NCBI GenBank assembly: GCA_034408725.1 | Contig: JAWXCN010000153.1 | Span: 1 to 40,443, forward strand | Reading direction: 5' to 3' | DNA length: 40,443 nucleotides | From: Candidatus Hydrogenedentota bacterium | GTDB taxonomy: Bacteria > Hydrogenedentota > Hydrogenedentia > Hydrogenedentales > SLHB01 | Part shown: positions 21,416 to 40,443 of the stretch, piece after piece | Layout of the letters: every line of letters begins with the position of its first letter | Numbering within the stretch: position 1 is the first letter of the stretch | Program-made: the position numbers and the translations under genes | Notes under the pieces: model-generated | Database searches by the model: none | What the model saw: the letters and a program-made list of their open reading frames with translations, nothing else | What the model was told of the DNA's origin: nothing

Positions 21416-21925
21416 ATGGCGAGGCGAAGCAGGATTACCCGCAAGGAAATCGAAAAATGGGTTAAGGAACATCCCGCGTTTCAGGTGTTGACCGACGAGG
21501 AGCGGCAGCGGGTGATGTTTCTGATCGAGCGTATGGCGGGACCATTGGCGCGACAGGGAGAGCGGGCCGTTTTCTTTTTCTCCCGGCTGGATGATGCGTG
21601 GATTTCGCAGATGCTCACCGCGCGAGCGGATGAATTACTGCTCGGCAAATTGACAAAGGAGAACCTCGATATGGCACAAAAACTACGGGATCGCGAAAGG
21701 AAGAGTGCGGCCGGTTTGACTGAACTGGCGGAACCGGCGCCGCGCAAAGCGCAAACAGGCGGGTTGGCGAGCAGGTACCGTGCACTGATGAAAAAGACGG
21801 AAGGTGTCGAGGAAGTGGCAATCGCGGACACGGAACGCCGTCGGGCCATGCGGGAAACGGCGTCAGAGATAAGCAACGGTGGTGCATTGGAAGATGATGC
21901 CGTCGATGAAAACCGTGGAGAATAA
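21416..21925 (+). CDS. Hypothetical helical protein, candidate terminase small subunit
   Basis: Strong AGGAGG RBS; 169 aa, charged and helical; lies immediately upstream of terL. The TerS call is positional only. Confidence 0.55.
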   Translation: MARRSRITRKEIEKWVKEHPAFQVLTDEERQRVMFLIERMAGPLARQGERAVFFFSRLDDAWISQMLTARADELLLGKLTKENLDMAQKLRDRERKSAAGLTELAEPAPRKAQTGGLASRYRALMKKTEGVEEVAIADTERRRAMRETASEISNGGALEDDAVDENRGE

Positions 21926-21928
21926 GGA

Positions 21929-23395
21929 TTGGTGTTTCCATGGGACTCCGAAGGCTTGGCCAATGCGCTGCGCAGCAGGAAATGTTCAAAGCAAGAGGCA
22001 GCGCGGTTTGAGAAAGTAGCGCGGCGCGCCGAGTTCGCTCGTAATCACATTCTCGACGCCGACGGCAACGGCTGGGCGGCGCGCGATTACCAATCGAAAT
22101 CGCTTGAATCGCGCGCGTTGCGGAAAGTGCATTGCGATGGCCGCGACGTCGGCAAGACCGCGGAGATCGAGATCATCGCGGTGTGGGCAATGGTGACGCG
22201 GCCCGATACTGAAATGTTGATTGCGACGCAATGTGACAACCATTTGTTCCCCCTCATGAATCGTTTGATTCGCAGATTCGAGACGACGCCTGAATTTGCC
22301 GGAGACCTTGTGGAAGTGAAGCGGTCGCCGTCGTGGTACATGCGGTTCAGCAACGGGTTTGTGTTGTGGGGACGCATCGCGGGTCCGCACGGTATGAATT
22401 TCCAGGGTCTGCATGTGGATTGGCAGATTGTCGATGAAGCGCAGGAGATGACAGAGAGCGCGTGGGGTGAGTTGTACCAGGCGCTCAACGGCGGCGGCAG
22501 ACGCTGGGTGTACGGCGTGCCGAATGGGTTGCGCAACACGTTTTATCGCATGACGCAACAGCAGGGAGCGGAACAGTACCGATGGCCCTCGACGCTGAAT
22601 CCAGAGTTCGACGCGGCAAAAGACGCGGAGCTGGCGCTACTGTACGGCGGCAAGCGTTCGCCGGGGTACCTGCACCGCGTGCTGGGCGAACACGGTGCGC
22701 CCGCGCATGGTGTGTTCGATTTGAACGATTATCTTGCGTGCGTGGACGAGTCGCTCGACTTTCACGATATTGCGCTGAACGAAGGCGATACGTTCGAGGC
22801 GCCGGGCGTTGCGGACGGGGCGTATTACCTCGGCTGCGATTTGGGGTATGCGCGCGATCCGTCGGAATTTGTGGTGTATCGCAGCGAGCCGCCGCATTTG
22901 GTGAATGTGTTGCGCGTGCATCTCGAGGGCGTGAACTACGCGCGCCAACAGCAGGTGATTATCGAGCTTGACCGCGCGTACAGGTTTCGCATGATTGGAA
23001 TTGACGCGGGAAATAGCGGCCGGGCCATCGCGCACAACTTGATGGCCCAGGTGGAAGATTTTTGCGACAGGATGCGGTGCATCGAATTCGGCGGAATGGT
23101 TGAACTTGAACCGTTGCCGGACGGTTCGCCGGACCGGCGTCCTGCGAAGTCGTTCATGACGGAATTGATTCAACGCGAGATGATGCAGCGGACGATTGTG
23201 TTTCCGCGATTGCCGGACCGGGAAGCGCAGTATGCGTCGCACACGTATTCAATCGGCATGACCGGGCAGATTATTTTTGACAAGGGCGGCGACCATCTAA
23301 TTGACGCGGATCGATGCGCGCTGTTGGCATGGCACTATGATACGCGGAGGTGCGAGCGTGGTCCGATGCTCGGGGTGGATGTCAGACGGTTTTAG
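21929..23395 (+). CDS. terL: Phage-type terminase large subunit
   Basis: Q-motif RDYQ, Walker A GRDVGKT, Walker B WQIVDEAQ, motif III-like YGVPNG; RNase H-like nuclease acidic motifs YLGCDLG...D, GIDAG and DHLIDA. Confidence 0.9.
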   Translation: MVFPWDSEGLANALRSRKCSKQEAARFEKVARRAEFARNHILDADGNGWAARDYQSKSLESRALRKVHCDGRDVGKTAEIEIIAVWAMVTRPDTEMLIATQCDNHLFPLMNRLIRRFETTPEFAGDLVEVKRSPSWYMRFSNGFVLWGRIAGPHGMNFQGLHVDWQIVDEAQEMTESAWGELYQALNGGGRRWVYGVPNGLRNTFYRMTQQQGAEQYRWPSTLNPEFDAAKDAELALLYGGKRSPGYLHRVLGEHGAPAHGVFDLNDYLACVDESLDFHDIALNEGDTFEAPGVADGAYYLGCDLGYARDPSEFVVYRSEPPHLVNVLRVHLEGVNYARQQQVIIELDRAYRFRMIGIDAGNSGRAIAHNLMAQVEDFCDRMRCIEFGGMVELEPLPDGSPDRRPAKSFMTELIQREMMQRTIVFPRLPDREAQYASHTYSIGMTGQIIFDKGGDHLIDADRCALLAWHYDTRRCERGPMLGVDVRRF

Positions 23396-23413
23396 GGGCG
23401 AATTGGCGGCGCT

Positions 23414-23626
23414 TTAGCGGATGATTGGGCGCGCTACGGGCACTACGCGAATATCCGTGGTGTGGTAGCGGCTTATACCGACTAATACTTGCGGCGCCGC
23501 GGAGATGGATGGAGCGGACGAACTGTTTCCCAGCATGGCTACGGCGCCCAACACGACCAGCGTGCCCATGAGCGCGCTCATGGCGAGGGTGGCTACCGGT
23601 TTCATCTCATTCAGAATTGCGGTCAT
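23414..23626 (-). CDS. Small hypothetical membrane or secreted protein
   Basis: 70-aa ORF with a hydrophobic N-terminal segment and a purine-rich sequence upstream. Confidence 0.4.
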   Translation of the reverse strand: MTAILNEMKPVATLAMSALMGTLVVLGAVAMLGNSSSAPSISAAPQVLVGISRYHTTDIRVVPVARPIIR

Positions 23627-23925
23627 TGCTCGTATCCCTTTGGCCTCTATGGCCGTACCCGAAAAGAATCATACCACATCCGGGTGAAAAATTCCTGGCG
23701 GCCGTGGTTGCCGTACTTAATTGGACGCAGAAGCGGCGGGGGTATTCATGGATGGGGAAATGGGACTTATAGGACCTATATGGGACTTATGAGATAAACA
23801 AAAACTATTTACTGGGGAGCCGATTCGATGGTGCAGGCTGTCACTCACTGGGTGTCTCCGGACATGGGCGGCGCTTTTGCATTGCGGGTGGAGGAAAGTT
23901 AGGCTTGCTGGTTGGAGGGTAGGGC

Positions 23926-25518
23926 ATGTTTCGATGGTCATTTTGGCGGAAGGTGTTGATTGGGTTCGTGGTGTTGATCGTGCTGCTCGCGGGTTTTTTG
24001 GCGTACCGGATGAAGGGGCCGGACCGGGGGTATCGCGTTGATTTGGCGCTCCCGGTGGCGGGTTCAGGTCCTGTGCCGGGGGTGCTCGAGGTGGGCGTGG
24101 CGATGCGCGATATCACGCCAGATTTGAGCAGGTACGATTCGTGGACCGACGCCAACGATGACGGAAAGTTTTCAGAAGGCGACGGCGATTCCTGGCAGGA
24201 CTCGAACGGCAACGGCAAACGCGATCTGGTGTGGATGGCGGGGTTTTCCGATAACCGTCCGGCAAAGGGTGTTCACGACAAGCTGTGGGCGCGGGCAATC
24301 GCGTTCCGCAACAACGGCGTGACGGTCGCGATGGTGACCATCGACAGCATCGGCATTCTGCACGAGAAATTCATCACGGTGCGCAAGAACATCGATCCGT
24401 CGTTGAAGATCGATCATGTGATGTTTTCTACGCTGCACAATCACGAGTCCCCGGATACGATGGGGATATGGAGCAACATCGACGGCGTGGGCGCAATCCT
24501 ATGGAAAGCGAACTTCGACTATGGATACATGGCGTTGGTGCAGGACGCGTGCAAGCAGGCCGTGGAAGAGGCCGTGCGCGCGTTGCAACCCGCGGACATG
24601 ACCATTGCCGAGGATACGATTGAACCCGACGGGTTTGTGGACGACAGCCGCCTGCCGCTGGTTTACGATTTAAGGATATGCTCCGCGCGATTTGTGAAAC
24701 ATGGCACGGACGAAACGATAGCTACGATGGTGTCGTGGGGAAACCATGTCGAAACGCTGGGCAGCACCAACTCATTGCTTACAAGCGATTTCGCGCACTA
24801 CCTGCGCGAGGGAATGGAAAAGGGCGTGGGCGAACCGAACGGCGTGGAAGGGTTCGGCGGCATGAGCCTGTATTTTCAAGGCATGGTCGGCGGACTAATG
24901 ACGCAATTGCACACCACCGTGCCGCACCGGGACGGGGTACAAAAATTCGAGCACGGAACGTTTGAGAAGGCGCAGGCGCTGGGCGAGAACGTGGCAATTG
25001 TGGCGGCGAAATCGTTGCGCGGCGACGCGGTAACGACAAGCGAGAACTCGAAAGTGGCAGTGGCCGCGCAGACGATCTTTGCGCCGGTGAGCGGCATGTA
25101 CGGTTATGCGATTGCCCTGGGCTTGATTCACCCCGGGTGGTACTGGGGCAAGGCGCGCACCGAGGTGAACGCATTCTGTATCGGTGATTTGGAAATTCTG
25201 ACGATACCGGGCGAGTTGTATCCCGAGATTGGCGAAGGCGGCGTCGAAGCGCCCGAGGGAGGAGATTTCCCCGGAGAGCCAATCGAGGTTCCGCCGTTGC
25301 GCAAGCAAATGCGCGGCAAGGTGAACATGGTCATCGGGCTCGCCAACGACGAGATCGGGTACATCATTCCGAAGACGCAATGGGACGTCGATCCGCCGTT
25401 CGCGTATGGACGCGACAAGGATCAATATGGGGAAGAAAATTCCGGCGGCCCGGATGTCGCGCCGGTGATTCATAAGGAGGCGTTGGCGGTGCTGGAGCGG
25501 TTGCATGGGTTGTTGTAG
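23926..25518 (+). CDS. Neutral/alkaline ceramidase-like membrane-anchored hydrolase
   Basis: N-terminal TM segment; GVHDKLWARA, STLHNHESPDT, GNHVE, TIPGELYPE and GLANDEIGYI. Confidence 0.75.
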   Translation: MFRWSFWRKVLIGFVVLIVLLAGFLAYRMKGPDRGYRVDLALPVAGSGPVPGVLEVGVAMRDITPDLSRYDSWTDANDDGKFSEGDGDSWQDSNGNGKRDLVWMAGFSDNRPAKGVHDKLWARAIAFRNNGVTVAMVTIDSIGILHEKFITVRKNIDPSLKIDHVMFSTLHNHESPDTMGIWSNIDGVGAILWKANFDYGYMALVQDACKQAVEEAVRALQPADMTIAEDTIEPDGFVDDSRLPLVYDLRICSARFVKHGTDETIATMVSWGNHVETLGSTNSLLTSDFAHYLREGMEKGVGEPNGVEGFGGMSLYFQGMVGGLMTQLHTTVPHRDGVQKFEHGTFEKAQALGENVAIVAAKSLRGDAVTTSENSKVAVAAQTIFAPVSGMYGYAIALGLIHPGWYWGKARTEVNAFCIGDLEILTIPGELYPEIGEGGVEAPEGGDFPGEPIEVPPLRKQMRGKVNMVIGLANDEIGYIIPKTQWDVDPPFAYGRDKDQYGEENSGGPDVAPVIHKEALAVLERLHGLL

Positions 25519-25951
25519 CGGTTATATACCCATATCAACGGGCACCATATGAGCATCAACGCCAAGATTGAAAGATTCAACGCCGTGAATATGGCTAACG
25601 GGTATAATGCGATTGAAATCCGTAGTCCATTGGAGATTGATTTTGGAGACCAAGTCTAAAACTTTTGATTGCGTCGACTTGAAGAACCGTATTCAGTCGG
25701 AACGCTTTGCCGAGTACCTTGAGCACTAGGAAGAATTTGATTCTTACGCGACCTTTATCGCGGCTCGCACGGAAAAGTCTGCTTGGGTTCGTGACATGCT
25801 TCGACGATTTCGGCCGGAAGTGAATACCGGCGATTAGCACGTCCGTTTGGCCACGTGCTTGTCGCGTTTCTCTTGACCCGGCTACGAAGCGCTCTCTTGT
25901 GCGCCGTGCTGTTCGATTACGTGAAACCAGGAACGAGGGGGCTCCAAATCC

Positions 25952-26869
25952 ATGAGATTTTCGCTTTTAATCATATGCTTTGCGCTATCGGTATCCGCGC
26001 AATCCAAAATCACCATCGCGCACCGGGGCGCGAGCGGGTATGTGCCGGAGCATACGCTCGAAGCGTATGCGATGGCGCATGCGATGGGCGCAGATTATAT
26101 CGAACCGGACGTGGTGCTGACGAAGGACAAGGTGTTTATTTGTCTGCACGACATTCATCTTGAGTCGACGACAGACGTTGAACAGAAATTTCCCGATCGA
26201 AAGCGCGCGGACGGGAAATGGTACGCGGCGGATTTTACACTCAGCGAGATCAAGCAGCTTCGCGCGCATGAGCGCCTTACCAACCGTTTTCCGCAAGACA
26301 AGTCGTCATTTGAAGTGCCGGCATTCACCGAGATGATCGAACTGGTGCAGGGTTTGAACGAGACGACGGGTCGCGAGACGGGCATTTACCCGGAACTCAA
26401 ACAGCCCGCTTGGCATCGGGAAAATGGTTTACCGATGGAGGAGGCGTTTCTTGCGGTGATGACGCAACATGGTTATACGGGCAGGGAGGCGAACGTGTTT
26501 GTGCAATGTTTCGAGCCGGATGCCTTGAAGCGGATGCGGTTAGAACTTAATTCCGAATTGCCACAGGTGCAGGTGATGGGCACGGACAAAGCCGATTTGG
26601 CGATGTTGACGAAGGAAGGCATCGCGGCGATTGCGTTGTATGCGAACGGGATAGGGCCGAACAAGGCGAGCGTGGAAGCGAACCCGGACTTGGTCAAATG
26701 GGCGCACGCGAGCGGACTGGTCGTGCATCCGTACACATTCCGCGCGGACACGTTGCCGTCGAAATACAAAACTTGCGATTTAGAACTCAAGCAGTTCTAT
26801 GATGTATACGGTGTCGACGGCATGTTCACGGATCATCCCGACAAGACGGTGGCATTCGTGAAACGTTAA
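25952..26869 (+). CDS. glpQ: Glycerophosphodiester phosphodiesterase, secreted
   Basis: IAHRGASGYVPEHT, DYIEPDVVLTKD, LHD, YPELK and GVDGMFTDHP. Confidence 0.93.
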   Translation: MRFSLLIICFALSVSAQSKITIAHRGASGYVPEHTLEAYAMAHAMGADYIEPDVVLTKDKVFICLHDIHLESTTDVEQKFPDRKRADGKWYAADFTLSEIKQLRAHERLTNRFPQDKSSFEVPAFTEMIELVQGLNETTGRETGIYPELKQPAWHRENGLPMEEAFLAVMTQHGYTGREANVFVQCFEPDALKRMRLELNSELPQVQVMGTDKADLAMLTKEGIAAIALYANGIGPNKASVEANPDLVKWAHASGLVVHPYTFRADTLPSKYKTCDLELKQFYDVYGVDGMFTDHPDKTVAFVKR

Positions 26870-26896
26870 AAAGCGTAAAAATTTATCCATTCGGTA

Positions 26897-27946
26897 ATGC
26901 GGGGGTGCGGTATGGCGATGGCGTCGCGGTTTTGGACGGCCATGTACGGAAAATGGCGAAGCGCGAAGGTTGCGCGCGCGCCGGGTTATTCGATTCTGAT
27001 GATGGTGCCCGGCGATTTGCCGGTGTTTTTAGATTTGGCGTTGGACGTGTGCGGCGCGCAGGACCTGACCCATTGCGCGGAGATTCTGGTCATTCCTGAT
27101 CGGCCACTGCCCGAGTTTCGCAAACGATTCGCGGCGTGCGCGGAAGAGCGGCCAAACCTTCCGCTACGTTTCGTGAAGCTGCCTTTGATCGATCGGATGG
27201 TCACGAAGCGCATGAACCATCCCCATCACAATTATTTTCTCCAGGTGAAAAACGGGATCGACGCGTCGCGCACCTCGCACGTGTTGTTGCACGACGCGGA
27301 CCTGTTCATCGTCGAACCCCATTTCTTGAAGACACATTACGAACTGTGCGTCGAAGGGAAATTCGCGTGTATGGGCCTAAGCCCGGTTTGGGACCAATGG
27401 TTCCGGGACAACGGTTATCCGTGGGTGACAGCGACGTGGGAACTGCTCATCGACGTGGCGTGGGCGCAGCAGTTTCCGCCGCACAAGCATCACGGCCACC
27501 GGGACGTGTTGAATGGCGTCGCGCACGATTTTGATGCGACGTTGTTGCCGCAGTGTCTGACCCCACCCGAGCGGATTGGCCGGCACCAGGAGGATTGGGG
27601 GTTTGTCCATTTTAATTATGTAATTAGCACCTACCGGTGGTTTCAGCGTAGTGGACGGCGGTTCGAGGACACGAACTTTCGCGTGTTGCTGGTGCGATTG
27701 CTAATTGACGCATGTGATCGATCCGGGTGGGAGTATGAGGCGCCGCCGATTGGAGACCTGGTGAAAGGACTTCGTGATCCGTCGCGCAGGGTGACATTCA
27801 CGAAACAGGAGACGCGCAAGAACTATCCCGAGTTTCGCGCGAAGTTGGGGGAGTTGCTCGAGAAAGGCCGGTTATCCGCGGCGCAGTGCGAAAGTATTCG
27901 GCGTGGGATTGAGCCGTTTGACAAGGCGTTTGATTGGCGGCATTGA
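26897..27946 (+). CDS. Putative GT-A fold glycosyltransferase
   Basis: DxD motif LLHDADLF after a Rossmann-like N-terminus; neighbouring cell-envelope genes. Confidence 0.55.
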   Translation: MRGCGMAMASRFWTAMYGKWRSAKVARAPGYSILMMVPGDLPVFLDLALDVCGAQDLTHCAEILVIPDRPLPEFRKRFAACAEERPNLPLRFVKLPLIDRMVTKRMNHPHHNYFLQVKNGIDASRTSHVLLHDADLFIVEPHFLKTHYELCVEGKFACMGLSPVWDQWFRDNGYPWVTATWELLIDVAWAQQFPPHKHHGHRDVLNGVAHDFDATLLPQCLTPPERIGRHQEDWGFVHFNYVISTYRWFQRSGRRFEDTNFRVLLVRLLIDACDRSGWEYEAPPIGDLVKGLRDPSRRVTFTKQETRKNYPEFRAKLGELLEKGRLSAAQCESIRRGIEPFDKAFDWRH

Positions 27947-28118
27947 CGATTTTAGATTTTGGATTAAAGAAAAACGAGGAGAATGGGTTGCCGACCCGAA
28001 GCAGGGTGGAGACCTGCGGTCGGGGTGGTGGCGCGGTCGGGAGACCGGCCACAACGCAACTGCCACAACGCAGGTACCATAACGCAGCTACCACAGCGCA
28101 GCTGTTTTTTCGGTCCTT

Positions 28119-29123: not shown

Positions 29124-29125
29124 TT

Positions 29126-31671: not shown

Positions 31672-31700
31672 AGTGCAACGCCATGGGCGAATTCATTGAA
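31672..31700 (+). promoter_or_regulatory. Conserved upstream motif of the portal operon
   Basis: AGTGCAACGCCATGGGC...TTGAA, 16/17 identical to 38842-38858. Confidence 0.6.
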
Positions 31701-31728
31701 GGCGATTGGCGCTCATGGAGGACGCAGC

Positions 31729-33006
31729 ATGACGAATTGGTTGGAGTGGATGCGCGGGCGGCGGCGGCGCGAGAAAACAGTGGCGCGGCTTCCGGCAGTC
31801 GCGGCAACTTTTGGGGAACGGGAAACGCGGGGCCGCCTATCGAGTCTGTCGATTCCGGAAGACAGGCATGGCTGGGAAGCTTCGGGCACGTTCATTGGGC
31901 TTCCAAACGACACGCCGTTCCACATGTTGTCCGTATACCGGTTTCTGCGCGACGCGATACCGGACGTGTCCGACGCGGTGTGGACATGGAAGCGGCTATG
32001 CCAGACGGGGTACGACGTCGAGATTCTCCGAGCGTCGTCCGGCACGGCAAAAGAACGCGCGGCGCGGCTGATCCACGAACTCGATACGCGCGTGAATACG
32101 GGCGATCGCGGGATGGATGGCCTCCTCGATATTTTCTATACCTCGCTTTTCACCTATGGCGCGGCGGCGTTCGAGATTGTGTTGTCGCAAAGCCGCGAAA
32201 CGATTCATGACGTTGTGCCGGTTGACGTGTGGACGGTGCGGTTTCGACGCGAGAACGGTGAGCTGCAACCCTATCAGGTGCGCGACGGCAAGGAAATCCA
32301 GTTGCCTCGCGAGCGGTTTGTTTACGTCGGCTTGGACCGCGACGGCACCAATCCCTACGGACGTTCGATGCTGCGGTCGCTGCCGTTCGTGCTGAAAATT
32401 CAGCAACGGTTGATCGAAGACATGGCGAAGGCGACGCACAACGCGGGTTGGTCGAAACTGCACGTGCGATACACGCCGGAGGAACGCCAGCGCGGGGAAT
32501 CCGTCGAAGCGTACGAGCAGCGGGTGAAAGGAAATTTTGATCAACTGCGTGACAAACTTTCGGGCATCGAGGCGGACCAAAACCTGGTTACGTATGACAA
32601 CGTAAGCATTTCGTTGTTGCGCGGCGACCAACACGCCCAGATTTTCTACGACAACCACAAGGCCATCGAAGAACAGGTGATTACCGGCATGCACCTGATG
32701 CCGATCCTGCTTGGGCGGAACTACGGCACTACGGAAACCTATGGCACCGCGCAATTCGAGATCATTAACCGGCAGGTCGAAGCCGTGAACCGGAGCGTCA
32801 AGCGGATTCTGGAACGCCTCTACAACTTTGAACTGGCGCTGATGTGGGGCGAGGCGTCCGCGCGGGTGGACATGCGCACGAACCGCACTACGGATGTATT
32901 GCGCGAGGCACAGGCGCGGGCGCGGGAAATTGCGAATGCAGTGCAGCTTCGCGACGAAGGTTTCCTGACGCAGGAAGAAGCCGCGAAGTCATTGGGAATG
33001 ACTTAA
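31729..33006 (+). CDS. Phage portal protein
   Basis: 425 aa; YRFLRDAIPDVSDAV, YGAAAFEIV, NPYGRSMLRSL, PILLG...TTETYGT and DEGFLTQEEA; located directly before the protease; GGAGG RBS before ATG 31729. Confidence 0.8.
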   Translation: MTNWLEWMRGRRRREKTVARLPAVAATFGERETRGRLSSLSIPEDRHGWEASGTFIGLPNDTPFHMLSVYRFLRDAIPDVSDAVWTWKRLCQTGYDVEILRASSGTAKERAARLIHELDTRVNTGDRGMDGLLDIFYTSLFTYGAAAFEIVLSQSRETIHDVVPVDVWTVRFRRENGELQPYQVRDGKEIQLPRERFVYVGLDRDGTNPYGRSMLRSLPFVLKIQQRLIEDMAKATHNAGWSKLHVRYTPEERQRGESVEAYEQRVKGNFDQLRDKLSGIEADQNLVTYDNVSISLLRGDQHAQIFYDNHKAIEEQVITGMHLMPILLGRNYGTTETYGTAQFEIINRQVEAVNRSVKRILERLYNFELALMWGEASARVDMRTNRTTDVLREAQARAREIANAVQLRDEGFLTQEEAAKSLGMT

Positions 33007-33054: not shown

Positions 33055-33750
33055 ATGGAACTGGAGCCGTTTGTTTTTAGACGCGAAGGCGCCCTGGTGG
33101 CAATGCGGCGCAGGGCCGAGGAAAATAACCTGACCGCGGATGTAAACGCGTTTGCGCTGCGCCCGCTCGCGGCGGAGGAATTCGCGGTGTTCACGCTCGA
33201 TTTGTGTCACAACCAGGTGGACCGCCATTTCAGCCGTTTTCCGGATGATGAACTCGACTCGATCAGCGCGATGACACCGGGGCGTCCGTTGATGGAGCGG
33301 CATGATCTGCGCGGCTCGCTGCCGCGTGGGACTTTTTTCCGTTCGACGGTGCATCGGGAATCGGACAAAGCAACGGTGCGACCGGATGTGTATGTGCTGC
33401 GCACGCGGGAGAACGAAGATTTCATTTTGAACATAGAAGGTGGTGTTTACCGCGAGACTTCGATTGGGTTTTCGTTCGAGCTGCCTGAATGTTCGATCTG
33501 CGGCAAAGACCTGCGTACGTGCGACCACGTGCCGGGGCGCACGTACGCCGATGCGCAGTGTCACTACATCATGCGAAACGTGTTGGAGGTGATCGAGGGG
33601 TCGGTGGTGCCGAGCGGTTCGCAGGGGACTGGTTTTATGTCGTTGCAGCGTGGAACTTCGGAACTTGACCAGTTGAAACCGCTGCGCGACGCCCTGAACG
33701 CTGGGCGCAAAACAGTCCACCGGCCAATCGAAGTGTGGTCGCGTGAATAA
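33055..33750 (+). CDS. Phage prohead (maturation) protease with a Cys/His zinc-finger-like insert
   Basis: NQVDRHFSRF, putative catalytic His (LMERHD) and Ser (ETSIGF), IEGSVV; insert CSICG...CDHVPG...C. Confidence 0.8.
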   Translation: MELEPFVFRREGALVAMRRRAEENNLTADVNAFALRPLAAEEFAVFTLDLCHNQVDRHFSRFPDDELDSISAMTPGRPLMERHDLRGSLPRGTFFRSTVHRESDKATVRPDVYVLRTRENEDFILNIEGGVYRETSIGFSFELPECSICGKDLRTCDHVPGRTYADAQCHYIMRNVLEVIEGSVVPSGSQGTGFMSLQRGTSELDQLKPLRDALNAGRKTVHRPIEVWSRE

Positions 33751-33798
33751 GGAAATCTTTTACCAAGAAGACACGAAGAACACGAAGAAAGAAAAGAG

Positions 33799-33990
33799 AT
33801 GGATACGAAGGAACGCTGCGCATGCGCGTATGTGCAGGACATCAAACTGGCGAACCTCGCGGATGATCTGCGGGAATTGAAGGAGCGGGTGCAGCGGCTG
33901 GAATCCACACTCGCGCGTGGCGTGATGTTGCTGCTTGCGAATCTGGCGGCGGTCGTGGTGACGTTGTTGCAACAGATTGTGCGCCCGTGA
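33799..33990 (+). CDS. Small coiled-coil plus C-terminal TM protein (XhlA/holin-like)
   Basis: 63 aa; heptad segment LADDLRELKERVQRLE followed by one hydrophobic helix; inside the head operon. Confidence 0.55.
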   Translation: MDTKERCACAYVQDIKLANLADDLRELKERVQRLESTLARGVMLLLANLAAVVVTLLQQIVRP

Positions 33991-34019
33991 CTAAAAGCCG
34001 ATTAGAGAATTAAGAAAGA

Positions 34020-34045
34020 CGCCCGGCGTGGAAGCCGGGCGCTAC
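34020..34045 (-). repeat. GTAG-type REP hairpin
   Basis: Minus strand reads GTAG-CGCCCGGC-TTCCAC-GCCGGGCG. Confidence 0.65.
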
Positions 34046-34059
34046 GGAAGGATTAGATT

Positions 34060-34761
34060 ATGTTTTGGAAACTGAGTGGCCAGAGAGACGAATCCGGTGA
34101 GGAGCAGAGCCCGCTCGCCAATGCGAAACGGTTTGTGTTGCAGCGTCATGCCGACGTTCATGGGCCGCATCTGGATTTGCGGTTGGAACAGGACGGGTAT
34201 CTGGTTGGGTTTCGCATTGATGGGTTGTGTGTCGAAGGCGAGACATGGGCGACGGAGAAGGCGCCGCACCCGGTTGATTGGCTCGACAGCGACGGCGAGA
34301 CAGTGCGGGAGGATGCGGGATTCTATGCGCTTGAGCGTGTGAACGCAGGAGAACTGCGATTGAAGCTGTACGGCGCGCGTCAGATGTTCGCCATTCATGC
34401 GGTACATGAGCCGGGGCTTTCTCCGATTGCCGTGCGCGATATTAGCGCAACGCTTCGTGCGCACTCGTTGGCGGCATCCGATGCAGCCAAACTGATCGCG
34501 GATGGATTGACCGCGCGGAGACGTGCGGTCGAGCGCTATTGCGGACTCGCGCGTGAACTGGATTCCGCGGCGTTTGACGAAGGGGTGTGCAAGCGGGCGC
34601 TCGCGGTGCTGAGCCTTGAAGAAATCCACACCCAACTTCGCGCGTACGAAGTGCGGTTCGACACAAAATATCCGCCAGCCCCTGTGTCGCAGCCGGAATC
34701 GGTTCGCCATCCCAACTTCACCGGTGCTGAAACCGCACTGGCGATCGTTCGCGAAGTGTGA
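34060..34761 (+). CDS. LigD 3'-phosphoesterase-like domain fused to a helical, scaffold-like C-terminal half
   Basis: RFVLQRH-x6-HLDLRLEQDG...HPVDW...DAG...GELRLKLYG parallels the LigD PE pattern; the C-terminal half is helical and ends in a Pro-rich segment. Confidence 0.6.
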   Translation: MFWKLSGQRDESGEEQSPLANAKRFVLQRHADVHGPHLDLRLEQDGYLVGFRIDGLCVEGETWATEKAPHPVDWLDSDGETVREDAGFYALERVNAGELRLKLYGARQMFAIHAVHEPGLSPIAVRDISATLRAHSLAASDAAKLIADGLTARRRAVERYCGLARELDSAAFDEGVCKRALAVLSLEEIHTQLRAYEVRFDTKYPPAPVSQPESVRHPNFTGAETALAIVREV

Positions 34762-34791
34762 TGGCGCTGGCGGTTAGGAATCGGTGATAAT

Positions 34792-34938
34792 GGCGAGGAC
34801 GTTGAATGTTGGCTTAGAATCCGCCAACCAGCGATGGATCGCGAATACGTGGTATCTCGTCTGGCACAACTATGCGAGTTGAAGGACGATACCGAAACGC
34901 TGAACCGCGCGCGAGCGATACTGTTGAAAACAGCATGA
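34792..34938 (+). pseudogene. Probable 3' remnant of a gene (possibly a nucleotidyltransferase-type TA partner)
   Basis: Open frame EDVE..RIRQPAMDREYVVSRLAQLCELKDDTETLNRARAILLKTA* with no convincing start or RBS; ends in an ATGA overlap with the next ORF. Confidence 0.35.
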
Positions 34939-35201
34939 AAATTCCGACACGTGAAGAACAACGCGAACTGGTCCGGTTGATGGAAGAGACCTACCAGCTT
35001 CTTGATGACATGAGGCGCGAATCCTTGCGTAATAAGCCGTATGACTGGGAAGAAGTCGATGCGTTGCCTGCGTTGGGCGATACCTATGACGGTCCGCCGC
35101 GACTCACGAGCGGATTGGTTGAGTTTCACGAGGTTTTGATGCGCGGGCGAGAGTTACATCCCCCTAAATCCCCCTTCAAAGGCGGACTTGAAGAAGGGTA
35201 G
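34935..35201 (+). CDS. Small hypothetical protein
   Basis: MKIPTREEQRELVRLMEE...PYDWEEVDAL...TSGLVEFH; ATGA-coupled start; C-terminus runs into a repeat element. Confidence 0.6.
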   Translation: MKIPTREEQRELVRLMEETYQLLDDMRRESLRNKPYDWEEVDALPALGDTYDGPPRLTSGLVEFHEVLMRGRELHPPKSPFKGGLEEG

Positions 35202-35356
35202 GGCGCGGCACGCTGTGGCGGACTTGAAGAAGTGAAGACGCGGCGCGCTGTGGCGGACTTGAAGAAGTGAAGACGCAGCACGCTGTGGGGACTTGAAGAA
35301 GGGTAGGGCGCGGCGCGCTGTGGCGGACTTGAAGAAGTGAGGACGCTGCGCGCTGC
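35181..35356 (+). repeat. Five-copy ~35-bp tandem repeat
   Basis: Units GGCGGACTTGAAGAAG(GGTAGGG/TGAAGA)CGCGGC(A/G)CGCTGT. Confidence 0.9.
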
Positions 35357-35366
35357 GCGACGGGTA

Positions 35367-36371
35367 CTATTTCAACGCGAACTTCTGAATACGGTGGTTG
35401 TACAGATCAACGACGTAGAGGCAACCCGTTGAGTCGAACGCGATACCGTGGGGTGCGAAGAATTTCGACGGTGTATCGCCCTGGCCTTCGACGACGCCTC
35501 GGATATAGGCGCCATCGTGGTTGAACTGCTGGATGCGGCCAGACACCGCGCTGACCCATAGGTTGTCCTGCGCGTCGAACTTCAGCGCGAGCGGACCTCG
35601 TAATTTTACTGGTGTGCCTTTGAACCCGGTGAACGTGCCGCCGAAGCTGCCCGGCGCATCCTTGTCATCACCCCAGCTCGCTAAATATTCTCCATCGCGC
35701 GAAAATTTCTGAATGCGGCAGTTCATGCCTTCGGTTGTCCATACATTACCTTCGGCGTCCAGCGCGACAAACTGCGGGCCGCCTGTGCGCGAATAATCGC
35801 GGTCTTTCCCGCCGAACTGTCCGGGTTCATTGCCGTACTCGCCCCATTTGAGCAGGAAATTTCCGTCGCAATCAAAGACTTGAACGCGATGATTGGTTTG
35901 ATCGGCGACATATACGCGGCCATCCTTGCTGAGCGCCAATCCTCCGGGACAGTTGAACTCGCCGTCGCCTGTGCCGCGCTTGCCCCATTGGCGCAACAAA
36001 GTGCCATCGGGCGAATACACGGAAACACAATCAATGGTGTCCTCCTTCTCGCGCGCTGCTGCGGCGAAATGGGAGATGTAGAGATTGCCGGCGGCGTCCA
36101 GCGCGAGACCGCCAGGGCCGGACAACACGGGAAACTGAGAAAGGAATTTTCCCCCAGTGTCGAATTTCTGAATGCGGTGGTTGTAATGTTCCGTGATAAA
36201 TATTTCGTCCGCGGGCGTGATGACGATATCGACCGGCGCATCGAGTTGGCCGGGTGCAGAACCTTGTCCACCCCATTCTTGGAGGAATTGAATCGTGCTT
36301 GACGCATCAGCCGCCGACGCTTGAATGGCAATCTGCAGTAGCAGGAAGACCAATGTGAACAGACGCGACAT
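35367..36371 (-). CDS. Secreted NHL-repeat beta-propeller protein
   Basis: Signal peptide; repeated WGxxGxGxGxFxxP...YVADxxNHRIQKF units. Confidence 0.9.
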   Translation of the reverse strand: MSRLFTLVFLLLQIAIQASAADASSTIQFLQEWGGQGSAPGQLDAPVDIVITPADEIFITEHYNHRIQKFDTGGKFLSQFPVLSGPGGLALDAAGNLYISHFAAAAREKEDTIDCVSVYSPDGTLLRQWGKRGTGDGEFNCPGGLALSKDGRVYVADQTNHRVQVFDCDGNFLLKWGEYGNEPGQFGGKDRDYSRTGGPQFVALDAEGNVWTTEGMNCRIQKFSRDGEYLASWGDDKDAPGSFGGTFTGFKGTPVKLRGPLALKFDAQDNLWVSAVSGRIQQFNHDGAYIRGVVEGQGDTPSKFFAPHGIAFDSTGCLYVVDLYNHRIQKFALK

Positions 36372-36477
36372 GAATATTCTGATCTCGATTGTAATACGCA
36401 TTTCCTACGCAGGTTTTATTATCGCGTCATGCGGCTAGCGCGATCAATAATATTACCAGCAATCCGGGAATTGACTT

Positions 36478-38184
36478 ATGCAAATACACGCCTGCGCCAG
36501 CCGAGGGGATATCGAACGCGTCGCGGAGCTATTGTCAAGCGGCGTCTCCACAGAATGTATTGATCCATACCACCAAACCACTCCCCTCATGGGCGCCGTA
36601 TCCAGTCCAAGGGCCGGCGTAGAAATGGCTCAATTTCTAATTGACCGGGGCGCAGACGTGAACGCGTCGTGTTGTGACTATCCCAAAACGGTTCTGGAGC
36701 ACGCTCTAAAATTTGGCGATCTTCCAAAGATAAAGCTTCTGCTCGATGCCGGCGCCAACATGGGCTGGAAACGCCCGAGCGGGTACGACGTAATGATGGC
36801 TTCGATGGAACGCGTGAACGGCGCATTCGACGAAAACCTCTTTCCTATCGTCCGACATTTAATCGATAGAGGAGTTCCCGCGAACCGAGTGACAATACAC
36901 GGTGAATCGGCGGTGCACTATGCATCGAGTGAGGGTAGATTTGACATTGTAAAATTGCTGCTTGCCGCGGGCGCGCCCGAAAGTGCGCTGAAGTGGACGG
37001 ACGTAATGCGGGGGATCGCTTTGGGGAGTCAAGAAGACGTGCAGAGTTTGCTCGTCCAAGGTGCGGACCAAACCGCGCGTGATTCCTGCGGGAGGACCCC
37101 GTGGCTGCTCTGCGCGCAGACTGGCGATGTAGCAAAAGCTAAACTGTTACTGGTGCACGGGGCAAATCCGGACGACCGTGATCGTTTGTCTTATAACGCA
37201 TTGTTTTACGCGATTATGAACGATCGGCCTGAAATGCTCTCGTGGTTGATTAACCAAGGCTTGGACGTGAACGAAGTGCTCAATTACCACCGTACGCCTT
37301 TGCGAGACGCAGCAGAAGCGGGCGCCTCGAGATGTGTACAGCGATTGATCGAGGCTGGCGCCGACATTTCGGAGCTTGATGATTTCGGCCATCCGCCGAT
37401 CGAACAGGCAGAAACCAAAGAAGTTGTAAAGCTACTTGTTGCCGCCGGCGCGGACCTTTGCGATATAAACGACGAGATGCGCGCGAGGTTGACTGGTTTC
37501 GAGGATGAAGGCTATCTAGATGTATCTAGAGATGATTATTTTCAAGGACGATATCCGCGTTTTGGAAATGCCAATGCTGAACTGATGAAAGTCGAATTCT
37601 GGAACGCGATGGTGCGAAGCGGAGTGACGGCGTATTGCGCGCGACAGGAATTCGAAGACACGGAGTCGTACGACGATCGTGCGGTTTGGTGCTTTAAACG
37701 GTTTGGCAAATCCATTACGGAGCTTCCGGATGGCCGTTTCATCGAGATCGGCGGCGAACATGAAGACCACTATGATGAGGATTTCTACATATACAATGAC
37801 GTTGTCGTTCATCATGGTAACGGAAGATTCGAAATATATGGATACCCCAAAGAGATGTTCCCTCCAACCGACTTTCATTCCGCCACGCTCGTCGGCGACT
37901 ACATTTACATCATCGGAGGACTCGGCTACCGCGGCGAAAGGCGGTTTGGCGAGACGCTCGTCTACAGGCTTCATTGTGACGGGTATACGATCGAACCAGT
38001 CGAGACATCCGCCGAAAATCCCGGTTGGATATGCCGGCACAAAGGAAAACTTGACGGAAACTCAATTGTAATCTCGGGTGGCAAAGTAAGTTCAATGGGT
38101 CCGGAGAAGGAAGAGTACGACGACAATTTCGGTCGTTATGCGTTGGATTTGTCGAGCATGAGATGGAGTCGAGTGACGGGATGA
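36478..38184 (+). CDS. Ankyrin-repeat protein with a C-terminal Kelch-like domain
   Basis: Repeated TPL..A / LL..GAD motifs; C-terminal IGGEHED, FHSATLVGDYIYIIGG and IVISGG. Confidence 0.85.
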   Translation: MQIHACASRGDIERVAELLSSGVSTECIDPYHQTTPLMGAVSSPRAGVEMAQFLIDRGADVNASCCDYPKTVLEHALKFGDLPKIKLLLDAGANMGWKRPSGYDVMMASMERVNGAFDENLFPIVRHLIDRGVPANRVTIHGESAVHYASSEGRFDIVKLLLAAGAPESALKWTDVMRGIALGSQEDVQSLLVQGADQTARDSCGRTPWLLCAQTGDVAKAKLLLVHGANPDDRDRLSYNALFYAIMNDRPEMLSWLINQGLDVNEVLNYHRTPLRDAAEAGASRCVQRLIEAGADISELDDFGHPPIEQAETKEVVKLLVAAGADLCDINDEMRARLTGFEDEGYLDVSRDDYFQGRYPRFGNANAELMKVEFWNAMVRSGVTAYCARQEFEDTESYDDRAVWCFKRFGKSITELPDGRFIEIGGEHEDHYDEDFYIYNDVVVHHGNGRFEIYGYPKEMFPPTDFHSATLVGDYIYIIGGLGYRGERRFGETLVYRLHCDGYTIEPVETSAENPGWICRHKGKLDGNSIVISGGKVSSMGPEKEEYDDNFGRYALDLSSMRWSRVTG

Positions 38185-38218
38185 TTGCAGAAAATGTGGA
38201 ACTGGCCACACGCGAGTT

Positions 38219-38452
38219 TTATTTTTTCTTTTTTGGCTTTACAGCAGTGATTACAGAGCGCAAAAAGGTATTCACCGATTCCGAAGTCTCAAAGACAGCA
38301 GCCACGTCCGGGTCCAGAACTATTGCGATCGTTCCCTGCTCCATCTTTCCGGCGAAGCGATTCGGTTTAGACTTTGCATAGTCAAAGCGGTACTCCTCTC
38401 GCATTTCATCGTTAGATGACCGGTTTTTTTTCGGAGCTTGTGAATTCTTCAT
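38219..38452 (-). CDS. Putative antitoxin (BrnA-like)
   Basis: DEMREEYRFDY...NRFA...VLDPDVAAVF...VNTFLR; overlaps the 3' end of the toxin gene. Confidence 0.75.
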   Translation of the reverse strand: MKNSQAPKKNRSSNDEMREEYRFDYAKSKPNRFAGKMEQGTIAIVLDPDVAAVFETSESVNTFLRSVITAVKPKKKK

Positions 38453-38732
38453 AATCCAGACGTTCCCTTCGTGTCGCGCGCCGAGCACTTATAATCCTAA
38501 CCCCGTCCTGCCGCGCAGTAAAGCTTACAACGAGTAAGCGGCGCTTATCCGAATGGCCGATGATGATCTCCCGATGTTCGTCCGCTGAATGGACTTCATC
38601 GTCATGAATTTTTGCCAATCGATCCAACATTACGGATCGGGCTTCTTCGAACATTATCCCATGTTTCGCGAAATTGGCGCCGGCCTTTTGGGGATCCCAT
38701 TCGACGTACAAGCCTGAATCCTCATAAGTCAA
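38412..38732 (-). CDS. brnT: BrnT-family (DUF497) ribonuclease toxin
   Basis: EWDPQKAGANFAKHGIMFEEA...RIISARRATRRE. Confidence 0.9.
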   Translation of the reverse strand: MTYEDSGLYVEWDPQKAGANFAKHGIMFEEARSVMLDRLAKIHDDEVHSADEHREIIIGHSDKRRLLVVSFTARQDGVRIISARRATRRERLDYEEFTSSEKKPVI

Positions 38733-38841
38733 CTGTTTTGCACCGCGAATTCGGACTATATCTCATATTATCCAATCTTTTATCCGTGCATCACAAGGCT
38801 TGCCTGGACGCAATTTCGGCGCCTCGCTTCCTCCTCCCCCC

Positions 38842-38869
38842 AGTGCAACGCCGTGGGCTATTGGTTGAA
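38842..38869 (+). promoter_or_regulatory. Conserved upstream motif of the capsid operon
   Basis: AGTGCAACGCCGTGGGC...TTGAA, matching 31672-31700. Confidence 0.6.
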
Positions 38870-38915
38870 ACGTAGCCGCGGGAATCGCGGCGCAACCCAT
38901 GAGGAGATACACGCA

Positions 38916-39296
38916 ATGGCGTATGGAGATGTTGGCGGCGCGGTGACCGAACTGGTCATCACGTGCAAGACCCCCGCAAGCGGGACGGTGAGTATTTTCG
39001 CGGGCGACGCGGTGAAGCTGACGGCGGCGTACACCGTGGACAACGCGACGGATGACGATGACGCGGTGTTTGGACAGGCGATGGCGGACGCGGACACAAA
39101 TGCCGTGGCAATTCCCGTGAAGGTCCGGGGCATTTGTGTTTTTGCATACGCAGGCACAGCGCCGACAGTGGACGGCGTCAAGGGCGTCACCGCGTCGGCC
39201 ACGAACGGCAAAGTGAAGACTCCGGCGTCGGGAAATGGCAGGGGCATCAACGTGAAAGTGGACGCGGCGTCGACGCTGGTCCACGTTTTGCTGTAA
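38916..39296 (+). CDS. Phage capsid cement/decoration protein (DUF2190-like)
   Basis: 126 aa, Ala/Gly/Thr-rich and beta-type (AGDAVKL, VFGQAMADA, ATNGKVK, VHVLL); GAGGAG RBS; directly upstream of the capsid gene. Confidence 0.7.
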   Translation: MAYGDVGGAVTELVITCKTPASGTVSIFAGDAVKLTAAYTVDNATDDDDAVFGQAMADADTNAVAIPVKVRGICVFAYAGTAPTVDGVKGVTASATNGKVKTPASGNGRGINVKVDAASTLVHVLL

Positions 39297-39318
39297 CGAG
39301 AAAGGAAAAGTACACGTC

Positions 39319-40368
39319 ATGATGTATGGCGATCACATGGTGAAAGAACGCGTCGCGTTTTTGAGCGACGACCCCGAGCGCTTGCGGACGGTGAAGGGCC
39401 GCGCGTTGTACGAAACGCTTGGCGGGCTTGGCCTCACGCACGCCCAGTATTTTCGCGCGCTGGGCACGAACGTGTCCGACTACTGCGCGCAGGAATTCGG
39501 AATCGATTTGCACCGCATCACGGTGGACCGCTTCTTCCAAAGCGATCCGAACGCCAAATGGCTGTTCCCCGACATGGTGCGCGAATCGGTCGTTGCGGGG
39601 TTGAAACGGCGTCCCGCGTATCCCGACCTGATCATTCGCGATGAGCCGATTTCGAGCACGGCGTTTGACGTGCCGTATGTCGAGGAAAATTCCGCGGAAG
39701 AAGAGCTGCGGACAGTTGCCGAAGGCGCGGCGATTCCGGAATCCGAAATTACCTACGGCGACCGTATCGTTCGGCTCGACAAGAAGGGCCGCGGCATTAT
39801 TGCGTCCTACGAGGTGATCCGGCGCATGTCCGTGGACATGCTGCGCGTACACCTGCAACGCATTGGCGAGCGCCTGGGCCGCGCCCTTGATGCGCGGCTC
39901 GCGACGGTGCTGGTCAGTGGCGATTCGTCCGGCGTGGCTACAGCCGCCACGACAGTGAACACCGCAACCGTGAACACGTGGACGTATGCGGACATCGTGA
40001 AGGGGTATATGACGCTCACCCTGGACCATTACTTCACGCCGACGCACATGCTTGCGAACTCCGCGCTCGCGCAGACCATCCTGAATCTTTCCGAGTTCAA
40101 GGACGCAGCGCTGTTCGACTTCGCGAAATCCGGCAACCCAATCACGCCGCTGGGCGTGAAGCTCGTGCCGATGGTCGATCAGCCCGCGAATAAGCTCACG
40201 ATTGTGGACGCGGGCTACGCCGTCGAAAAACTCACCGAGCAGGACGTGCTCGTCGAGAACGACAAACTCATCAATCAGCAATGGGACCGCACGTTCCTCA
40301 CGGTCGTGACTGACTTTGCCGTGATCTACCAGAAGGCGCGCGTGGTCGTCCAGAGTGACTGGACCTAA
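39319..40368 (+). CDS. HK97-fold major capsid protein
   Basis: 349 aa; LFPDMV, E-loop VAEGAAIPESEI, KKGRGIIASYEVIRR, spine helix LRVHLQRIGERLGRALDARL and C-terminal DFAVIYQKARVVV. Confidence 0.88.
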   Translation: MMYGDHMVKERVAFLSDDPERLRTVKGRALYETLGGLGLTHAQYFRALGTNVSDYCAQEFGIDLHRITVDRFFQSDPNAKWLFPDMVRESVVAGLKRRPAYPDLIIRDEPISSTAFDVPYVEENSAEEELRTVAEGAAIPESEITYGDRIVRLDKKGRGIIASYEVIRRMSVDMLRVHLQRIGERLGRALDARLATVLVSGDSSGVATAATTVNTATVNTWTYADIVKGYMTLTLDHYFTPTHMLANSALAQTILNLSEFKDAALFDFAKSGNPITPLGVKLVPMVDQPANKLTIVDAGYAVEKLTEQDVLVENDKLINQQWDRTFLTVVTDFAVIYQKARVVVQSDWT

Positions 40369-40376
40369 GCGCGCCG

Positions 40377-40408
40377 CGCGGCGGGGGTACGCCCTCGCCC
40401 CCGCCGCG
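40377..40408 (+). terminator. GC-rich 11-bp hairpin after the capsid gene (possible attenuator or mRNA stabiliser)
   Basis: CGCGGCGGGGG-N10-CCCCCGCCGCG followed by a pyrimidine/AT tract; a new GGGAG RBS and ATG at 40438 follow. Confidence 0.5.
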
Positions 40409-40443
40409 TCCCCCTTATTACTTATTGGGAGAATTCGATGCCC

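Follow-up and report, generated by a model that had tools for sequence, protein, structure and literature searches.

A domesticated, phage-derived gene set inherited vertically in Candidatus Hydrogenedentota may encode a gene-transfer-agent-like particle

Introduction

Gene transfer agents (GTAs) are, to our knowledge, known from only a handful of lineages. In the RcGTA-type GTAs of Alphaproteobacteria, head and tail genes of phage origin are owned by the host, inherited vertically and held under purifying selection; integrase and replication genes are missing, and fibres, spikes and regulators are encoded at other loci and co-expressed. The PBSX-like defective prophages of Bacillus are likewise fixed in the chromosome and make phage-derived, non-viral particles that package DNA, with a contractile tail encoded in one block. 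Here we analyze a 40,443-nucleotide contig of a Candidatus Hydrogenedentota genome (JAWXCN010000153.1 of assembly GCA_034408725.1), the whole of which we call the window. It carries genes for a phage-type large terminase (TerL), a portal, a prohead protease-like protein, a cement-like protein and an HK97-type capsid. This gene set is inherited vertically and kept under purifying selection, and in the genus of the window it is scattered in blocks that share a promoter-like motif. The genes very probably belong to a domesticated, phage-derived particle system. With less assurance, we lean toward a GTA-like particle, a host-owned viriform inherited vertically in the phylum since before its families split.

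The system, a putative particle, can be compared with RcGTA by its genes. As in RcGTA, the host owns the genes, no integrase lies near the module and the parts are scattered. Unlike in RcGTA, the portal belongs to PF06074 and the capsid to PF25209, the tail hub carries a nuclease domain, a LigD-type phosphoesterase is encoded in the head operon, neither a tail tube nor a tape measure was matched, TerL is often megabases away and duplicated, and the phylum is unrelated. We do not count the system as a member of the RcGTA family, given its different portal and capsid families and the lack of a tube match in five genomes and of a tape-measure match in four of them. PBSX differs from it as well, in that no match to the sheath (PF04984) or tube (PF04630) models was seen here in any of five genomes searched, and the genes are scattered. 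Encapsulins are HK97 shells without portal or terminase, and both are present and conserved here; tailocins are tails without a capsid, and here there are a capsid, a portal and TerL, with no sheath or tube match in the same five genomes. Our literature search, which covered a largely open-access collection, found no such system described for the phylum. Where Hydrogenedentes and GTAs are named together, the passages deal with alphaproteobacterial GTAs only; nothing was found on capsids in Hydrogenedentota, and none of the listed works on GTAs and domestication concerned the phylum.

Results

An intact set of head and packaging genes

The window is an entire contig (C153) of a metagenome-assembled genome (MAG; G000) that comprises 280 contigs and is 92% complete; the public runs behind it are labelled microbial mat metagenome. 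Other G numbers below denote genomes of relatives. An earlier reading of the sequence, which we call the original prediction, had proposed intact TerL, portal, protease, cement and capsid genes on the + strand. All five are open reading frames (ORFs) where it had placed them (Table 1).

The catalytic motifs, which we take to be a Walker A-like element (DGRDVGKT), a Walker B-like element (IVDEA) and three nuclease motifs bearing Asp, do not vary among 24 TerL sequences. The likely portal start lies inside a longer ORF (31633–33006), since relatives align from about residue 23–33, and the cement gene is taken to start where the alignment of 19 genomes begins, at M22 of a longer ORF. The protease-like protein has tblastn matches in 17 phage records, some of them annotated as 'protease/scaffold' or 'major head and protease protein'; given this annotation by others, protease is a plausible label. 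The protein is well conserved (68% mean column identity over 19 genomes). Its AlphaFold model is poor (pLDDT 54) and too weak for a structure search, its profile has no significant match in the Protein Data Bank (PDB), and the best 120 of its 569 homologs are solely unnamed or 'hypothetical' Hydrogenedentes proteins. The 63-aa protein that follows is kept in the loci of six relatives and has no PHROG match. For the cement-like protein, Atlas neighbours (DUF2190 and Phage_cement_2, score 0.96) are a lead only, and the best PDB profile match (E 0.11) is not significant.

The capsid and cement genes have GC3 values of 0.79 and 0.76, at the 100th and 98th percentiles of the long ORFs of the genome, which may reflect codon tuning for high expression.

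Directly upstream of TerL lies orf169, for which no Pfam, PHROG or PDB profile match was found. Its family occupies this place in 10 aligned genomes, with 19–34% identity to the window protein, and is order-wide and TerL-linked; the homolog in G035 aligns with an hhalign probability of 99.6% (E 3.3e-24). By position, orf169 is a small-terminase candidate. We had considered the 173-aa ORF upstream of TerL in G035 as an ECF sigma factor, and rejected this: it has no PDB sigma match and belongs to the orf169 family.

A second intact TerL paralog, TerL-B (G000:C79:37045-38316), sits alone at a contig end near ferritin, enoyl-CoA hydratase and murC-ftsQ-ftsZ cell-division genes, and forms its own clade within the family with 100% support. 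Another family, L166 (G000:C51:37467-38186, with copies on C35, C83, C111 and C235), often lies within a few kb of TerL-B and near the AGTGCAAC motif described below. It is multi-copy and patchy (13 of 41 genomes, at most 8 matches per genome), with weak matches to small-terminase PHROGs (E 0.003–0.004). It could represent either a mobile element or an additional partner in packaging. We tried it as a relative of orf169, and the two are unrelated.

Table 1. Positions of the module genes, promoter-like motifs and host repeats; coordinates are those of the window, and C264 is another contig of the same genome
Feature	Position	Strand	Evidence or remark
orf169, fast-evolving helical protein directly upstream of TerL	21416..21925	+	synteny, homologs
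Large terminase TerL-A, packaging ATPase and nuclease	21929..23395	+	phrog_2 E 1.8e-20; no Pfam match
Portal protein, Mu-type family	31729..33006	+	PF06074 (Portal_Mu) E 1.1e-8; phrog_3753 E 2.8e-51
Prohead protease-like protein	33055..33750	+	phrog_16951 'unknown function' E 1.2e-33; no Pfam match
Small 63-aa protein, hydrophobic C-terminal stretch	33799..33990	+	58% identical to same-place ORF in G030
orf233, LigD-type 3'-phosphoesterase domain (residues ~17–107) and ~125-aa C-terminal domain	34060..34761	+	PDB profile matches
Cement/decoration-like head protein, 126 aa	38916..39296	+	phrog_4588 virion structural protein E 1.6e-8
HK97-type major capsid protein	39319..40368	+	PF25209 (Phage_capsid_4) E 7.3e-16; phrog_3922 E 2.1e-53
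d1, small adaptor-like protein	C264		position only
d2, distal tail protein (Dit)	C264		SPP1 Dit C-terminal domain E 6.8e-7
d3, 579-aa hub, gp27/Mu gp44-type, with staphylococcal-nuclease domain	C264		predicted fold and profile
d4, 173-aa baseplate-like protein	C264		baseplate and virion-protein PHROG matches, E 4.5e-6
d5, one further small gene	C264		conserved position
Motif AGTGCAAC-N17-CAGGA	21377..21406	+	ends 10 nt before orf169 start
Motif AGTGCAAC-N17-TGAAG	31672..31701	+	28 nt before portal start
Motif AGTGCAAC-N16-TGAAA	38842..38870	+	46 nt before cement-gene start
Host dispersed intergenic repeats, left edge of block A	21157..21278	.	repeat families D10, I2, I10
Host dispersed repeat between blocks A and B	28008..28058	.	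families I4, D8
Host dispersed repeat and local 35/70-nt tandem repeat, preceding the inserted genes (NHL, ankyrin, BrnT)	35156..35355	.	D2, D10, I8

Single-copy presence, descent and selection

We counted module genes in 41 genomes sampled from the order and in 126 phylum genomes with a completeness of 80% or more. The capsid gene is present in 36 of the former and 108 of the latter, always as one full copy free of stops; second capsid matches are fragments at contig ends. The portal gene was found in 39/41 relatives and TerL in 37/41, and eleven module proteins were recovered together across 26 genomes. Single-copy orthologs had been named by the original prediction as a mark of domestication, along with congruence with the species tree, dN/dS well below 1, host-like codon usage, variable genes between the islands and the absence of a flanking integrase. 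As described here and in the following sections, every check that was run supported its reading of a vertically inherited, domesticated particle system; that the particle is a GTA is something we infer.

Capsid identity to the window protein is 85–93% within the genus, 71–85% within the family and 57–77% within the order. DnaB is less conserved at every level (80–87%, 59–74% and 45–66%, respectively). On a maximum-likelihood (ML) tree of 75 capsid proteins, 13 GTDB family labels need only 13 changes, the minimum being 12. Shuffling of the labels gave a mean of 35.7 changes, with 0/200 shuffles as low as 13, and the genus forms a starred clade. Mantel tests against DnaB distances gave r values of 0.53 for the capsid (0/2000 permutations) and 0.41 for the portal (1/2000). 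Within the genus, Nei-Gojobori (NG86) dN/dS is 0.064 for the capsid and 0.070 for DnaB, and the values for the portal (0.11), protease-like protein (0.09), cement protein (0.13), phosphoesterase (0.25), hub (0.13) and TerL-A (0.10–0.20) are also well below 1 (0.06–0.26 over module members), although all are rough because dS is near saturation (~1–1.6). In codon usage, the long genes (TerL, portal, capsid and hub) lie among the bulk of host genes, at the 13th to 74th percentile of host long ORFs (DnaB, 85th); we set aside the distances of short genes, which are not comparable with a long-ORF reference. Presence in most of the phylum, the tree and the dN/dS values together describe host-encoded, vertically inherited phage structural genes, as expected for GTAs.

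The same data bear on whether these genes are instead a temperate phage family, or prophage remnants, that co-diverged with its hosts. All parts do have phage homologs. One IMG/VR contig was matched, with a capsid 59% identical, and an unspecified 'induced' provirus has been reported in a Hydrogenedentes MAG (PMC9377139). Against this, the capsid changes at a slower pace than DnaB, its tree comes close to monophyly for the family labels, and it occurs once per genome. It is also far from known phages. The nearest capsids in 50,697 phage records (12 records) share no more than 34% identity with it. A search of 1.84 billion cluster representatives yielded a single full-length capsid cluster at 77% and fragments at ≥55%; the next full-length relatives stand at ≤36%, with nothing between. 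Tyrosine integrases (PF00589) lie 330, 760 and 122 kb from the module in the well-assembled genomes G035, G039 and G014, so that none is within 100 kb; nor is there one on the module contigs of G021 or of G000, where the original prediction had also noted the lack of an integrase in the window. No replication or lysogeny Pfam families were found among the ~40 window ORFs scanned, several small ones of which are unassigned, and no genome-wide search for replication genes or serine recombinases was made. The genes are moreover split over loci up to 1.5 Mb apart. Thus the marks of a prophage, a contiguous element with an integrase, a patchy distribution and decay, were not seen (att sites were not searched), and we consider this explanation extremely improbable.

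A decaying true prophage is present in G035 (G035:C1:3620255-3625944), in contrast to the intact domesticated set. There, TerL fragments 31–40% identical to the window TerL, one with a TGA stop, adjoin a tyrosine integrase.

Several observations sit less easily with descent of the whole set from before the family split. No capsid match was found in 18 of the 126 phylum genomes. G028 (97% complete, 40 contigs) keeps TerL, with no portal, capsid or hub found. G125 (92% complete, 10 contigs) has a portal, with no capsid or hub found; the gaps in these two genomes may be lineage-specific losses. The capsid tree comes from a quick search and has many open forks, families f1, f5 and f11 need 3, 3 and 2 changes (starred branches force 1, 2 and 1), and one genome of another order nests in an f1/f3 polytomy. 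The capsid and portal correlations with DnaB distances are only moderate, and neither the cement protein (r 0.07, Spearman -0.21) nor the hub (Spearman 0.07) shows any. Within the genus, TerL-A is 70–73% identical, compared to 73–88% for its cellular neighbours, orf169 is only 27–34% identical, and the TerL tree is star-like. The divergence of TerL-A and orf169 could reflect fast evolution or replacement.

A tail tip with a nuclease domain, and a phosphoesterase in the head operon

The window contig ends 75 bases past the capsid gene. Five conserved genes come next in six relatives, and in the window genome the same five start at base 2 of contig C264. Inspection beyond position 40443, which the original prediction had advised, thus reveals a tail tip only, followed by cellular genes (glycosyltransferase, flippase-like, lipase).

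The profiles of d1 and d4 have no significant match in the PDB. The hub, d3, is the most informative of the five, with a good predicted model (pLDDT 86.5). Foldseek matched it to a diffocin baseplate (E 1e-12), to Mu gp44, T4 gp27, VgrG and the T5 and lambda tips (range 1e-12 to 1e-9), and to phage 'tail' proteins in BFVD. Its middle part is a staphylococcal-nuclease domain (profile E 2.5e-8). The putatively catalytic residues there, which align to the nuclease motifs DGDT, R..D.(P)E and GR, are kept and are largely invariant in 17 genomes. A tblastn search with the hub found no match in the 50,697 phage records and, given this, the fusion of hub and nuclease looks like a host-side invention.

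These proteins resemble the Dit and Tal tip of siphophages, d2 in its SPP1 Dit domain and d3 in its gp27/Mu gp44/VgrG fold. Phage Tal proteins often carry cell-wall hydrolases; d3 has its inserted nuclease domain in that place. A siphophage tip is built on a tube and tape measure. Three Pfam models were used to look for such parts in five genomes: the sheath and tube models had no match in any, and the tape-measure model (PF10145) had none in four of the five. By these models, the tail may be a tip that lacks a tube. One caveat here is that the small post-capsid proteins have no assigned role. Another is that the join between C153 and C264 was deduced from synteny alone, as the two contig ends share no overlap.

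In the head operon, at the position taken by the scaffold gene in phages, is orf233. Its profile matches the LigD phosphoesterase domains of bacterial and archaeal non-homologous end joining (3p43, E 1.6e-8; 3p4h, E 4.3e-7; also 3n9b), with the signatures H..H.D.R.E and HPL aligned, and the His, Asp, Arg and Glu columns of the signature are invariant in 19 genomes. Unlike LigD, orf233 lacks ligase and polymerase domains, is fused to a C-terminal domain of no assigned kind and lies inside a phage head operon. Micrococcal-type nucleases leave 3'-phosphates, which LigD phosphoesterases remove. By this chemistry the hub nuclease and the 3'-phosphoesterase are biochemically complementary and may form a cut-and-heal pair, which would also leave room for a role other than transfer.

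A particle might be made whose job is not gene transfer. It could be a PBSX-like killer that delivers the hub nuclease, or a device that cuts extracellular DNA in mats or biofilms, and the mat origin of the runs, the retained nuclease residues, the lack of hub relatives in phage records and the missing tube and tape measure, the usual conduit for DNA, are all in keeping with this. Other features fit it poorly. The ATPase and nuclease motifs of TerL are all kept under purifying selection, and portal and capsid are among the most conserved proteins, which would be odd if the packaged DNA were irrelevant, though PBSX-type particles also package DNA. Moreover, a DNA-end-healing enzyme in the head operon suits DNA delivery better than killing. 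On balance we judge a purpose other than transfer to be rather unlikely.

The operon is broken into blocks at host repeats

In other families, most module genes lie in one operon. The order in G035 and G021 is TerL, ~2 kb, portal, protease, small protein, phosphoesterase, cement, capsid, d1, Dit and hub onward; the set is compact in these two genomes and in G004. TerL can be remote from the head genes, by 1.5 Mb in G039 and 1 Mb in G014. In the genus of the window, the operon is broken into blocks among cellular genes at host repeats. Block A consists of orf169, TerL and ceramidase-like, GDPD and glycosyltransferase (GT) genes; block B of GNAT, GT2, a small ORF, portal, protease and phosphoesterase; and block C of a BrnT pair, cement, capsid and the tail tip. 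The window contig holds A, B, an insert and C. A and C are together in G002, with B elsewhere, and G001, a 50-contig assembly, has the blocks on three contigs of 25.7, 350 and 266 kb. In G004 the genes from portal to capsid are contiguous, with no insert between orf233 and the cement gene. A single capsid could not take in the whole set, whose genes occupy at least four contigs in the window genome and lie as much as 1.5 Mb from each other in G039 and G014.

The original prediction had described three islands split by about 8 and 4 kb of cellular genes, and the gaps measure 8.3 kb (23395 to 31729) and 4.2 kb (34761 to 38916). Its assignments of the intervening genes stood in large part: Pfam recognizes GDPD, GT2, NHL, ankyrin plus Kelch, TPR and BrnT domains. 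The yjbQ assignment did not stand (the ORF at 30137–31036 has no Pfam match), and the ceramidase-like gene scores below the Pfam cut-off (26.1 bits vs 32.1), as does GNAT. The genes between blocks also differ among relatives. As had been claimed, host repeats occur in and around the islands; a repeat search recovered all three regions, and two are multi-copy genome-wide, with 83 blastn matches on 54 contigs for the unit at 21157–21199 and 36 matches on 25 contigs for the repeat between blocks A and B.

These repeats raise the question of whether the scattering in the window is partly an assembly artefact, with three pieces misjoined. The genome is in 280 contigs, the repeats are multi-copy, and independent Logan contigs from four public runs all stop at them (~21.16, 28.03–28.06 and 35.24–35.31 kb), which leaves the MAG assembly as the only source for how the three pieces are ordered, a point that counts against the layout proposed here. 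Within the pieces (21163–28057, 28029–35240 and 35311–40429), however, single Logan contigs span every junction between phage-derived and cellular genes. Furthermore, four other species of the genus carry these blocks next to the same cellular genes, differently combined, including on the long contigs of G001. The scattering is thus real even if the order in the window is wrong, and we regard the artefact as improbable.

The BrnT toxin gene directly upstream of the cement gene (38219–38732 on the − strand; Pfam E 1.3e-24) has a small overlapping partner ORF, and BrnT-like and partner ORFs lie at the same position in G001.

The block starts share a promoter-like motif

Each scattered block in the window starts with the same putative promoter motif, AGTGCAAC followed after 16–17 bases by a purine-rich hexamer. 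The motifs begin 39, 57 and 74 nt before the orf169, portal and cement-gene starts, respectively. The pattern AGTGCAACRYC occurs 3 times in the window compared to 0.08 expected, always on the + strand at the three block starts, and 0/100 shuffles reach 3. When the hexamer 16–17 nt downstream is required, the three matches compare to 0.38 expected. A strict '-10' (TRRRRG) matched the portal site only and was loosened post hoc to YRRRR; at the orf169 site this half is doubtful because it overlaps the ribosome-binding site. A 16-mer, GTGCAACGCC[AG]TGGGC, has only two occurrences in the genome, before the cement gene and before the portal gene.

We then counted the core GTGCAAC in the ~250 nt upstream of each gene in relatives. 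It precedes the portal gene in 13 of 25 genomes from three families, with a constant N16–17 to a purine-rich hexamer, and the cement gene in 5 of 26 (G000–G003 and G020), not including G004, where that gene directly follows orf233. Counts are low elsewhere: protease 2/25 and phosphoesterase 2/25 (both inside coding sequence), capsid 1/26, d1 0/22, hub 1/22, d4 0/18 and DnaB 0/26. Among 23 TerL loci, 8 have it just upstream of the orf169-type ORF, the background being 0.086 per kb per strand. In 69 capsid-centred loci (L020–L088), a hand count gave 26 matches to the bipartite pattern in 19 loci, with 24 on the same strand as the capsid gene.

A further candidate part came to light through the motif, which precedes a 340-aa ORF on C263. 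The product of this fibre-like gene begins with a hydrophobic stretch, has a high content of Gly, Thr and Ser, and gave no Pfam or PHROG match. It is homologous (E 1e-31, with conserved ends and a variable middle) to a gene that lies in the G030 operon between the protease gene and that of the small protein. Eight further genomes have homologs at the module or adjacent to it. In 4 of 6 loci examined the motif is immediately upstream of the gene, which is inside the operon in G030 and other genomes.

A 36-nt direct repeat at 21280–21381 (89% identical, copies 66 nt apart, unique in the genome) lies just upstream of orf169. Its second copy runs into the AGTGCAAC motif and its first ends in the similar AGAGTGC, so the arrangement resembles a duplicated promoter region. 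Another motif site, just past TerL-B, was considered as part of the module and dismissed, as it precedes a FabG-like reductase and is probably unrelated.

Some caution about the motif is warranted, since it was found post hoc and by eye in three upstream regions. Just over half of the genomes examined have it upstream of the portal gene, the bipartite pattern has 27 sites genome-wide compared to 15 for a reversed control, and some sites lie in or before unrelated genes (uvrB, rpsD, FabG-like).

The shared motif bears on another possibility, that there is no particle any more and that TerL, capsid, hub nuclease and phosphoesterase were each co-opted for separate cellular roles. The partial sets of G028 and G125 and the lone TerL paralog beside murC-ftsQ-ftsZ would be in line with such a fate. 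Yet eleven structural genes are kept together in 26 genomes, their order is kept where the set is compact, and one motif recurs at the scattered blocks. None of the three would be preserved if the genes had been co-opted one by one, an explanation that we hold to be highly improbable.

Other features of the window

DnaB, whose presence the original prediction had reported, is encoded at 3387–4928. GC skew turns from negative to positive at 16000–17500, with a cumulative minimum at ~17 kb, 12 kb away from DnaB; this switch may mark a replication origin or terminus. At 8075–8376, arrays of a 7-nt unit (GGGTATC-like) form a long imperfect palindrome with 77-nt arms 129 nt apart, and an extra copy lies 3 kb off, at 11183–11230. 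Between genes for an acyl-CoA dehydrogenase and a phosphotransferase, at 11295–11620, there are two direct repeats of ~150 nt (D3 and D4; 80–83% identical, 179–180 nt apart), each with an internal inverted repeat. An M14 zinc carboxypeptidase with a C-terminal dockerin domain is encoded at 16477–18054 on the − strand. Many dockerin genes have been reported in Hydrogenedentes MAGs (PMC9377139).

Discussion

A packaging motor, portal, capsid and tail tip have all been retained, which points to a particle filled with DNA and made under host control. Particle formation, DNA content and any effect on a recipient are here deduced from gene content, which tempers the GTA-like reading that we prefer. 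In that reading, a host signal would be read via the shared motif, and the cell would build the capsid. TerL would fill it with DNA through the portal, and the phosphoesterase could be packed inside by means of its C-terminal domain. The portal would be closed by a tube-less stub, composed of adaptor, Dit and the hub with its nuclease, which would also serve in attachment and delivery.

A bolder proposal is that this is a new class of particle and not a classical GTA, one that combines a DNA-filled capsid, a tube-less tip with an active hub nuclease, a 3'-phosphoesterase in the head and a one-promoter regulon. Such a particle would bring its own 'cut and heal' chemistry to the DNA that it delivers or meets, and one promoter type would have followed every gene block as the operon broke up. 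We offer this tentatively, as a possibility that we would not yet bet on.

The particle system, with its retained genes, is of interest for several reasons. Its build is unusual, in that no tail tube was found, the tip bears a nuclease and a DNA-end-healing enzyme is encoded in the head operon. The motif provides a handle for finding the regulator and further parts, there are two assayable enzymes, and the parts list is short enough for particle expression. There is also a practical warning: virus-prediction tools will call these loci proviruses in bacteria that are abundant in mats, sediments and digesters.

How viruses become host organelles is an open question. The system described here extends across the phylum and is ancient, and selection constrains its capsid to the same degree as DnaB, a core replication protein. 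One genus shows the operon at different stages of break-up, with the fragments keeping the same control signal.

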